DNA of 32,374 nucleotides from Pseudomonadota bacterium. Its GTDB lineage: Bacteria; Pseudomonadota; Gammaproteobacteria; Pseudomonadales; JAXHSS01. Both the position numbers and the translations under genes were made by a program. Every line of letters begins with the position of its first letter. The first letter of the stretch is position 1. Location: positions 2,344 to 34,717 of the forward strand of contig JAXHSS010000001.1 of NCBI GenBank assembly GCA_034190675.1, written 5' to 3'. This document shows, in pieces, positions 9,984-10,684 of the stretch. The notes below the pieces were generated by a model, which saw only the letters and a list, made by a program, of their open reading frames with translations, had not been told where the DNA came from and searched no databases.

Positions 9984-10522
9984 TATTTCCACTCCAAGTG
10001 GCAATTCCCCGTAAGGAAATAAACCATGCCATTGATTTGACGATTGAAAATTTCTAAAACATTATCACCTAGGTGAGCTTGAATTTCTTTCTCAAGGTGA
10101 GTCCTGAAAAGTAGCTTCAATGCTGCTTCTTCCTTTACATCAAGTAACCTTTTTTTAATATTTGCGTTAAAAATCGACTCAACTTCGGCTAATAAAAAAG
10201 TAATGATTTTCTGAGCCGACTTGTAATGCTGATTCCGAATAATTAACTTACTGACTTCTTCCTTTAGTTCCTCTCCGACATCAACCAAATAGCCAAACCC
10301 AGCATCTTCAAGTTTTTCAGTCAAATCTCGAATATCGTAATTTTCATTACTATAGTGAGTCAGCTCATCAATAATTACATAAGTCACTTGTTGATTCGAC
10401 TTTTCTTCAACATACTTTTGCGACAGCAAATCCATCTGTGTAGAAGCTGGTAAGATATTTGTTATCTTGTCTCGTCCAACAACATCTCCGCCCGCCGTAA
10501 TATTTCTGAGCCAATTAAACAT
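9983..10522 (-). CDS. LmuA-like ABC-three-component C-terminal-domain protein lacking an enzymatic effector, with an N-terminal AGGDVVGRDK motif
   Basis: 179 aa. Helical body (DLTEKLEDAG...SAQKIITFLLAEVESIF) ending INGMVYFLTGNCHLEW, which resembles ABC-3C CTD ends (CTD9-like from memory). Only a short N-terminal segment precedes it. Possible SD AAGGT about 9-10 nt upstream. Confidence 0.65.
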   Translation of the reverse strand: MFNWLRNITAGGDVVGRDKITNILPASTQMDLLSQKYVEEKSNQQVTYVIIDELTHYSNENYDIRDLTEKLEDAGFGYLVDVGEELKEEVSKLIIRNQHYKSAQKIITFLLAEVESIFNANIKKRLLDVKEEAALKLLFRTHLEKEIQAHLGDNVLEIFNRQINGMVYFLTGNCHLEWK

Positions 10523-10684
10523 TTACTTTTGAACCTTATCTCGGCCTACAACATCGCCGCCAGCTTTTACATTTTTAATAGTGGTTTTACTTCCAGATTT
10601 AAAGCTTGCATGAACTCTTACTCCAAGCCCAAGAACTGAAAAGACAGCCGCAGCTATTATGCCAATTGTTATTAAATCATCCAT
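10523..10684 (-). CDS. 53-aa single-transmembrane microprotein with C-terminal AGGDVVGRDK motif (candidate effector)
   Basis: MDDLITIGIIAAAVFSVLGLGVRVHASFKSGSKTTIKNVKAGGDVVGRDKVQK. GAGG SD 8 nt before ATG 10684; hydrophobic stretch at about residues 4-24; its TAA directly abuts the next ATG. The motif it shares with the next gene differs only synonymously, which supports real coding. Confidence 0.75.
   Translation of the reverse strand: MDDLITIGIIAAAVFSVLGLGVRVHASFKSGSKTTIKNVKAGGDVVGRDKVQK

Follow-up and report, generated by a model that had tools for sequence, protein, structure and literature searches.

The window studied here, a stretch of 32,374 nucleotides (nt) from a Pseudomonadota bacterium (GenBank assembly GCA_034190675.1, contig JAXHSS010000001.1, positions 2,344 to 34,717), carries on its minus strand a putative horizontally acquired operon of four genes, which we assign to the short Lamassu/ABC-3C type with MC5 and CTD9 components and with its effector apparently split off as a separate gene. 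The genes are ordered microprotein, CTD9 protein (in the LmuA position), MC5, LmuB. We found that the microprotein, which is only 53 amino acids (aa) long and has a single predicted transmembrane (TM) helix, ends in a peptide that recurs at the N-terminus of the CTD9 protein encoded next to it. Selection has kept the two peptides alike in many phyla, and the microprotein may therefore be the effector that the system lacks. The best explanation as a whole, to which we give a probability of about 0.55, is that the peptide is a homotypic adaptor, resembling bacterial amyloid-signalling motifs, that recruits a membrane microprotein effector to Lamassu. That the peptides are a selected, matched pair, and that the small open reading frame (ORF) is a real fourth gene, is highly likely.

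The microprotein gene (10523..10684, minus strand; 53 aa plus a TAA stop) has the sequence GAGG about 10 nt 5' of its ATG. It encodes a short acidic N-terminus, a predicted TM helix at residues 4-24 (LITIGIIAAAVFSVLGLGVRV, 10613..10675, minus strand; best 17-aa hydropathy 2.57, a feature also seen in relatives), a basic linker, and a C-terminal motif whose extended form spans residues 36-53 (IKNVKAGGDVVGRDKVQK, 10526..10579, core 10535-10564, minus strand). The ATG of the next gene lies immediately 3' of the microprotein's TAA, and in the window the two ORFs share a reading frame; the first ends in ...KNVKAGGDVVGRDKVQK and the second begins with MFNWLRNITAGGDVVGRDKITN... This second gene (9983..10522, minus strand; 179 aa) is in the LmuA position, and consists of an N-terminal motif, a linker, and a CTD9 domain at residues 66-178 (Pfam PF20285, E = 4e-31). 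Its copy of the motif, in extended form, spans residues 5-22 (LRNITAGGDVVGRDKITN, 10457..10510, core 10466-10495, minus strand).

The initial annotation of this DNA claimed that the peptide AGGDVVGRDK occurs in both proteins with identical residues and different codons, and our recomputation gave the same result. On the minus strand, the peptide occupies codons 41-50 of the microprotein gene (10564-10535; GCT GGC GGC GAT GTT GTA GGC CGA GAT AAG) and codons 10-19 of the CTD9 gene (10495-10466; GCG GGC GGA GAT GTT GTT GGA CGA GAC AAG). The copies differ at five of the 10 codons (positions 1, 3, 6, 7 and 9), always at the third position and always synonymously, so that the copies agree at 25 of 30 nt, with an unbroken match of at most 8 nt. 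The flanking residues (TIKNVK before and VQK after the microprotein copy, versus WLRNIT and ITN) show the conservative exchanges that had been described (I/L, K/R, N/N and V/I before, V/I after). Ten residues is the longest peptide common to the two proteins, and the maximum in 5000 shuffles of the microprotein was 6. In the 1.9-Mb assembly, a search with a degenerate DNA pattern for GD..GRDK found these two sites and no others, and the reversed-pattern control found none. A DNA repeat finder (seed 9) does not pick up the pair, so the repeat exists at the protein level and not at the DNA level. With 8.33 synonymous sites between the copies, the proportion of synonymous differences (pS) is 0.60 and the synonymous distance (dS) is 1.21, as large as the dS between orthologs from different genera (0.81 for the microprotein gene and 1.29 for the CTD9 gene).

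The arrangement is conserved far beyond the window. At E <= 0.001 we found 130 relatives of the CTD9 protein, and nearly all of the best 120 have a related N-terminal motif; the few that start later look like late start calls. We compiled 81 loci, of which 80 came from an alignment-based scan and the remaining one is the window, from Pseudomonadota, Bacteroidota, Acidobacteriota, Verrucomicrobiota, Planctomycetota, Chlorobiota, Cyanobacteriota and other phyla. Seven loci were dropped, either because the contig ends upstream (L050, L064 and L075) or because the CTD9 protein has an HNH-like domain (L035, L037, L039 and L041). Among the 74 assessable loci, 72 have an intact ORF of 49-113 aa that contains one hydrophobic helix, carries a matching tail and stops no more than a few codons from where CTD9 begins. 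Neither independent divergence of the two copies nor routine absence of one of them is therefore seen. At one of the other two loci (L088) only the tail is present, at a contig end. At the other (L087:2185-2464) the TM part and the motif tail are in different frames, which may reflect either a frameshift in the assembly of this metagenome-assembled genome (MAG) or a pseudogene. MC5 lies 3' of CTD9 in all seven diverse loci that were tested. An independent census based on the motif's DNA pattern gave eight further microprotein-type ORFs with readable downstream DNA, and each of the eight is followed by a CTD9 protein (Pfam E-values from 1.5e-21 to 7e-34) with a related N-terminal motif.

The four loci with HNH-like domains, from Flavobacteriaceae and other Bacteroidota, have a domain of about 200 residues before CTD9 (matching HNH_2 at E = 0.003-0.007, below the Pfam cut-off) and no microprotein. 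The motif together with the microprotein thus takes the place of an effector domain. In L035, an MC5 gene and an ABC (ATP-binding cassette) ATPase gene follow the HNH-CTD9 gene on its 3' side as usual.

We found that the two copies of the motif co-vary among loci. For the 74 assessable loci, grouped by identity of their CTD9 domains, we scored the best ungapped 12-mer (BLOSUM62) between the three-frame translation of the DNA upstream of CTD9 at one locus and the head of the CTD9 protein at the same or another locus, the search space being identical for within-locus and between-locus pairs. Ancient duplication followed by independent evolution would give equal scores for both types of pair. Instead, within-locus pairs have an excess of 14.3 BLOSUM units, which is positive in 40 of 41 clusters defined at >=70% CTD9 identity (Wilcoxon p = 9e-13) and in all 12 clusters defined at >=50% identity (p = 2.4e-4), and none of 2000 permutations of cluster representatives reached the observed mean. 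The copies within a locus are therefore more alike than copies from different loci, which was one of the checks proposed in the initial annotation. Clade-specific variants are common to both copies–for example, AGGHIAGG in sphingomonads, GDQAGRD, GDNAGRD, and the GNL, GHM or GSM-AGRDV forms of alphaproteobacteria. In the most extreme case, a cyanobacterial MAG (L074:2262-2385), an unrelated Q/N-rich peptide, QQNNGNNSVNYQAE.I.V, replaces the GGDxxGRD motif in both genes, and the downstream MC5 is canonical (E = 7e-44). The two copies in this MAG are identical at 50 of 57 nt, which indicates a recent paired replacement.

Matching at the protein level could be maintained by selection or by exchange of DNA between the adjacent genes. 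Across 71 loci, identical residues are encoded by the same codon in 275 of 601 cases, compared with 257.4 +/- 11.5 expected from the codon usage of each locus. This small excess is due to three loci whose copies are alike in DNA (36 of 36 nt in L018 and in L053, 32 of 36 in L019) and in which the neighboring genes appear to have undergone a recent conversion or re-duplication event. When these three are set aside, codons agree in 242 of 567 cases, with about 241 expected, so that 68 of the 71 loci are at the level of chance. Conversion or re-duplication, as seen in these three loci and in the cyanobacterial MAG, is thus an occasional event, and one by which both genes can acquire a new motif simultaneously. 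Selection, assisted at times by conversion, maintains the matching, and in the majority of loci, the window among them, it does so at the protein level. The claim that selection, and not a recent DNA duplication, keeps the window's copies alike is borne out by these codon counts and by the dS of 1.21. We also calculated the ratio of nonsynonymous to synonymous substitution rates (dN/dS) from 21 pairs among seven close loci. For the microprotein gene it is 0.185 (helix 0.20, linker 0.30, and lowest, at 0.078, in the motif and tail), and for the CTD9 gene it is 0.061 (0.094 in codons 1-24). In close relatives from sequencing runs, a 1-nt deletion at position 10607 is compensated by a 1-nt insertion at a distance of 4-5 nt, so that the reading frame is preserved.

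The microprotein belongs to a large family even though it has no match in Pfam (0 families at E <= 1), PADLOC or NCBIfam. A profile built from 46 sequences and searched among 1.84 billion cluster representatives found 619 of them at E <= 1e-3. Together with the dN/dS of 0.185, this substantiates the earlier proposal that the small ORF is a real gene. The best 150 of these 619 relatives have a median length of 59 aa; 137 of them are <=75 aa, and none is fused to CTD9. Among the relatives the mean net charge is -0.95 in the flank N-terminal to the helix and +3.54 in the 15 residues after it, and the C-terminal flank is the more positive one in 137 of 137 proteins. The positively charged flank of a TM helix lies on the cytoplasmic side (the positive-inside rule), so the motif-bearing tail should be cytoplasmic and able to meet the N-terminus of the CTD9 protein. 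The consensus of the motif family is xQKxNxVGGDxAGRDIxK, with G-G-D and G-R-D nearly invariant, and the conserved stretch of about 17-19 residues appears to consist of three short beta-prone segments split by glycine turns. Some microproteins (L061:2205-2474, L069:2212-2484, P0193, P0207, P0241 and P0258) are about 90 aa long and have two copies of the motif joined by a polar low-complexity linker, versus one copy in the CTD9 partner, resembling the arrangement of r1/r2 versus r0 in HET-S/NWD2. A five-residue rhythm had been proposed for the motif. It is visible in some relatives (for example GGDVI/GGDKA/GRDVN in L086), but tandem arrays elsewhere use a 12-residue unit.

The same peptide also caps proteins that have nothing else in common with Lamassu. 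The exact pattern GGDVVGRDK occurs in at least 119 stretches of species-representative genomes, of which we examined 80. Most of these are from Anaerolineae and Thermoflexales, and the peptide typically lies 20-45 residues from the N-terminus of a large protein. All nine of the large proteins tested resemble nucleotide-binding oligomerization domain-like receptors (NLRs), with nSTAND1, NACHT or NB-ARC domains combined with WD40, tetratricopeptide repeat (TPR) or FGE-sulfatase domains. Chloroflexi genomes contain several such motif-capped proteins of the STAND (signal transduction ATPases with numerous domains) class, for example in L104, L122, L130, L132 and L170 (within L091-L170). In the same phylum the motif is found C-terminal to caspase domains (L117 and L120) and to a CHAT domain (L118), with TCAD2 in two of these proteins. 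Seven smaller proteins with the peptide (240-360 aa) had no Pfam match, and the end-module itself has no Pfam model. In the region L102:72-98 the motif is arrayed as tandem 12-residue units (GGDVTGRDKITA, GGDIVEGDKTTA, GGDVVGRDKITK), and arrays also occur in L158, L092 and L119, which suggests that the motif may form repeated rungs within one chain. Because the peptide is present on sensors and effectors that share no other domain with Lamassu, it behaves as a portable end-module of conflict systems.

In the mechanism that we propose, the CTD9 protein keeps only its docking and oligomerization domain and carries the 18-residue peptide in the place that a nuclease or other enzyme occupies in other LmuA proteins, and the microprotein would be a single-pass inner-membrane protein exposing the same peptide on its cytoplasmic tail. 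The two peptides would bind homotypically and would probably form short beta-arches with glycine turns, stacked as they are in HET-s/NWD2, in the Bell/NLR pairs that use bacterial amyloid signaling sequences (BASS), and in Bab/Agp. By analogy with the solved Lamassu systems, LmuB and LmuC would sense DNA ends and release LmuA, which would oligomerize via its C-terminal domain. The N-terminal peptides clustered in this way would template or recruit the tails of microproteins, and the resulting clustering of TM helices would damage the membrane and cause abortive infection. We consider direct pairing between the microprotein tail and the CTD9 N-terminus probable. That assembly is templated and amyloid-like, and that the microprotein acts as an effector by damaging the membrane, is a more tentative proposal, suggested by analogy. 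More speculative still is the generalization that GGDxxGRD-type peptides might be a portable self-templating module (prion- or amyloid-like, a single-rung beta-solenoid) that links DNA-end sensing by Lamassu to membrane permeabilization by the microprotein and is a common currency for NLR-like sensors and caspase or CHAT effectors in Chloroflexi.

Known amyloid-signalling pairs resemble the window's gene pair in part. In Bell/NLR and HET-S/NWD2 systems, the N-terminal motif of a sensor templates the C-terminal motif of a small membrane-targeting protein (10.1101/2020.01.06.895854; PMC8086366). The families BASS1-10 and HET-S/NWD2 are like the window in that neighboring genes encode an effector that ends in the motif and a sensor that begins with it, and GGDVVGRDK also caps NLR-like STAND proteins of Chloroflexi; they differ in that the window's sensor is not an NLR and its host lineage is not multicellular. 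In HET-s and some BASS motifs the effector has pseudo-repeats and the sensor a single copy (Dyrka et al., 10.1101/2020.01.06.895854). A further parallel is Bab/Agp (BASS11) of E. coli, in which motif templating leads to membrane-directed cell death (Ibarlosa et al., 10.1101/2024.11.07.622273). The two Bab/Agp genes are adjacent and code for a small protein, which starts with a hydrophobic helix and has the motif at its C-terminus, and for a sensor whose N-terminus bears the same motif. However, Bab contains a folded 'Babybell' domain (109 aa), whereas the window's microprotein has 53 aa and no domain, and the window's motif is shorter, charged, and only a candidate for amyloid formation. Judged as a BASS-type pair, the window's adjacent genes have the expected layout, with one motif that is C-terminal in the effector-side protein and N-terminal in its sensor-side neighbor; 72 of the 74 loci share it. 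The place of an NLR or STAND sensor is taken in the window by the CTD9 protein of an SMC-type (structural maintenance of chromosomes) system, and searches of Pfam, PADLOC and NCBIfam detected no Bell domain or other known death or enzymatic domain, only the TM helix.

Several points weigh against the proposal that a homotypic adaptor recruits a membrane effector to Lamassu. Binding, fibril formation and membrane damage are proposed on the basis of sequence and analogy. A complex prediction made with the CTD9 and microprotein alignments scored 0.00 against a mark of 0.32, with a predicted local distance difference test (pLDDT) value below 50 for the partner, a result that speaks neither for binding nor against it. 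The conserved motif is short (about 17-19 aa) and rich in D, R and K. BASS motifs are described as about 25 aa long (10.1101/2020.01.06.895854), and a high content of charged residues is atypical for them, though typical of HET-s r1/r2 (PMC8086366); identical charges stacked in register would be unfavorable. The microprotein lacks a Bell domain and any other known death domain, and a lone TM helix could equally be an anchor. The window's sensor is not an NLR, and release and oligomerization of a CTD9-type LmuA are extrapolated from CTD7 and CTD12 systems. Some of the covariation comes from gene conversion (L018, L053, L019 and L074) and not from selection on matching. One of the 41 clusters (L073) has no within-locus excess in the 12-mer test; its copies are a divergent pair that the 12-mer window missed, and their match of 11 of 21 residues was obtained only by eye and hand alignment. 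Some close relatives also have unlike copies, such as GGDIV versus GGDVI in L009 and AGGDVV versus AGRDVI in L012.

Because the microprotein consists only of a TM helix, a linker and the motif, with no recognizable death domain, it might do no more than anchor the Lamassu complex or LmuA at the inner membrane through paired peptides, for example near the site of DNA entry, and killing or interference would then come from elsewhere (LmuB-dependent handling of DNA, or a host factor). A cytoplasmic tail and a co-inherited matched pair are equally expected of such a constitutive tether. We nevertheless regard it as unlikely. The motif and microprotein stand in for an HNH-like domain on the same CTD9 scaffold, which is the effector slot of ABC-3C and Lamassu proteins; the presence of the motif on caspase and CHAT effectors and on NLR N-termini in Chloroflexi is a layout of sensor-effector coupling; and a tether would leave an effector-less system without a known output. 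Alternatively, the peptides may not bind each other but may both fit one pocket on MC5, LmuB or CTD9, for instance as competing ligands in a displacement switch, and be alike because they track the same pocket. A common binding site also predicts within-locus matching and strong constraint on both copies, and the genes for CTD9, MC5 and LmuB are always alongside. We think this quite improbable, because the identical peptide is found on STAND NTPases, caspases and CHAT proteins that occur without CTD9, MC5 or LmuB, and the absence of any common receptor domain between those proteins and Lamassu favors pairing of motif with motif. Moreover, both copies in the cyanobacterial MAG were swapped for an unrelated peptide and its MC5 and CTD9 are still ordinary members of their families, and tandem arrays and double copies suit self-stacking better than binding to a pocket.

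It is very improbable that gene conversion alone homogenized two adjacent repeats by neutral concerted evolution, with a small ORF that is not functionally coupled to CTD9. The near-identical DNA of the copies in L018, L053, L019 and L074 is what such a process would produce, but the other 68 loci of the codon comparison are at chance, the window's copies are as divergent at synonymous sites as described above, with no long exact run and with the motif's dN/dS at 0.078, and the ORF, its TM helix and its topology are kept across phyla. Other candidate explanations were rejected. In the window the two ORFs share a frame and could be fused by read-through, but at other loci the distance between them, whether a gap or an overlap, ranges from -195 to +26 nt. 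A function of the motif as an RNA-level element is ruled out by the synonymous differences, and a function as a protease site finds no protease in the proteobacterial operons.

The rest of the operon is that of a short Lamassu system. Downstream of the CTD9 gene, and overlapping its stop codon (TAATG, with the ATG at 9983-9981), is a gene for an MC5 middle component of 167 aa (9480..9983, minus strand; Pfam PF20291, E = 6.3e-49), which is LmuC-like but matches the PADLOC LmuC model weakly (2e-4). The MC5 gene in turn overlaps the gene for an LmuB-like ABC ATPase of SMC/Rad50 type (7592..9490, minus strand; 632 aa, a short form), which matches PADLOC LmuB over residues 7-623 (1.7e-41) and Pfam AAA_23 (1.6e-10), with weak matches to SMC_N and DZR_2 under their cut-offs. 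Its sequence contains a Walker A motif (GKNGSGKT) and a zinc-hook-like pair of CxxC motifs (CPSC...CSVC). The locus therefore has the LmuB-type ATPase, the middle component encoded between the effector-side and ABC genes, and the ABC-3C C-terminal domain (CTD9) on the effector-component protein; the N-terminal enzymatic domain of LmuA is lacking, as the 65 residues before CTD9 contain no Pfam domain. No PADLOC LmuA model matches the CTD9 protein, so that the label 'LmuA-like' given to it in the initial annotation is apt for its position but is more precisely stated as a CTD9-only LmuA without an effector domain. NCBIfam has no match for the three small proteins of the operon, a profile search of the Protein Data Bank (PDB) with the CTD9 alignment gave 0 matches at E <= 1, and the ESM Atlas returned only unnamed 'hypothetical' clusters at 0.90-0.91. 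Both CTD9 and MC5 were reportedly defined by Krishnan et al. in NAR in 2020.

The operon lies between prpF (6282-7466) and dbpA (11098-12492). The G+C content is 0.32-0.39 across 7500-11000 (about 0.36 for the cassette), compared with 0.47-0.53 in most of the flanking bins and 0.43 in one. Near-identical CTD9 proteins are present in Shewanella, Halomonas, Marinobacter, Alteromonas, Aeromonas and other genera, and together with the low G+C content this indicates a mobile defense islet. Contigs from four RNA-library runs (X7, X8, X17 and X18) that are 95-99% alike span 9400-10686, including the whole microprotein ORF, a match that is not proof of transcription. They diverge past 10686, only two bases beyond the microprotein's ATG, which indicates that the conserved cassette begins at the microprotein gene; the uncovered interval 10687-10900 is uninformative. 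We found no direct repeats flanking the G+C-poor islet, and in a scan for promoters and terminators the sites were no commoner than in shuffled sequences, with none upstream of the microprotein. No phage record contains a CTD9 relative, and six plasmid records contain distant ones (26-31% identity). On one plasmid (L210; NZ_CP047389.1, 279753-280310 and flanks), the genes that come after a distant CTD9 gene encode a Mu-transposase, TniB and TniQ instead of MC5 and LmuB, and the upstream TM ORF (locus positions 2774-2926) has no in-frame motif; it looks like a disrupted, degraded locus. Elsewhere in the window, two minus-strand ORFs of 215 aa and 83 aa at 13182-14191 contain many N, T and G residues and match no Pfam family; they may be fragments of a larger surface protein gene.

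The window's operon resembles published Lamassu systems in its LmuB of about 630 aa, its small middle component, the ABC-3C C-terminal domain in the LmuA position, and the order effector-side gene, middle component, ABC gene. It differs in having a fourth, unannotated gene, for the TM microprotein, before lmuA, and a peptide common to both products. In the Lamassu system where this has been described, LmuA is held as an inactive monomer and is released when LmuB and LmuC meet DNA ends, whereupon tetramerization of its C-terminal domain joins the N-terminal domains (10.1101/2025.06.23.660979). Clade O of Lamassu, described by Haudiquet et al., is like the window in having an LmuA without an enzymatic domain. 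We infer that the window's locus and its CTD9 clade are clade O and that the microprotein is what was missed there; a microprotein effector may thus explain this published 'effector-less' clade. The words 'membrane' and 'transmembrane' have 0 occurrences in PMC12663957 and in 10.1101/2025.03.14.643221. A parallel from outside Lamassu is EACC1, a small protein with one TM helix whose gene lies 5' of that for an effector or sensor, reported together with effector-associated domains (EADs), duplicated adaptors that were proposed to couple effectors homotypically to core components (Kaur, Burroughs, Iyer and Aravind, eLife 2020, PMC7159879). The window's microprotein is like EACC1 in its size, its single TM helix and its position 5' of an effector or sensor gene, and the motif is like the EADs in being duplicated and in its proposed homotypic coupling. 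Unlike them, the window's adaptor is a peptide of about 18 aa and not a folded domain, and the microprotein's lack of any Pfam match at E <= 1 would extend to the EACC1 model, which we take to be PF19953. Searches of the literature for Lamassu with an amyloid or transmembrane effector, and for the literal motif strings, did not find the arrangement described here; Krishnan et al. (NAR 2020), the BASS logos and profile hidden Markov models, and the Lamassu clade tables may bear on its novelty.

If the proposed recruitment of a membrane microprotein by a homotypic adaptor is true, it would supply an effector for an apparently effector-less clade of Lamassu, in the form of a microprotein that gene callers and defense catalogs have overlooked. 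It would also connect SMC-based immunity for the first time with amyloid-type signaling by motif templating, which has so far been tied to NLR-like and TPR sensors. If the more speculative view of a self-templating module is also correct, amyloid-type immune signaling would not be confined to NLRs or to multicellular microbes, and the 53-aa microprotein would be the smallest death effector of its kind. With two 18-aa peptides and one TM helix, and with natural motif variants that covary, the system would be very small and genetically tractable. The use of the same peptide by Chloroflexi on NLRs as well as on caspase and CHAT proteins suggests a widespread adaptor, one for which Pfam has so far had no model.

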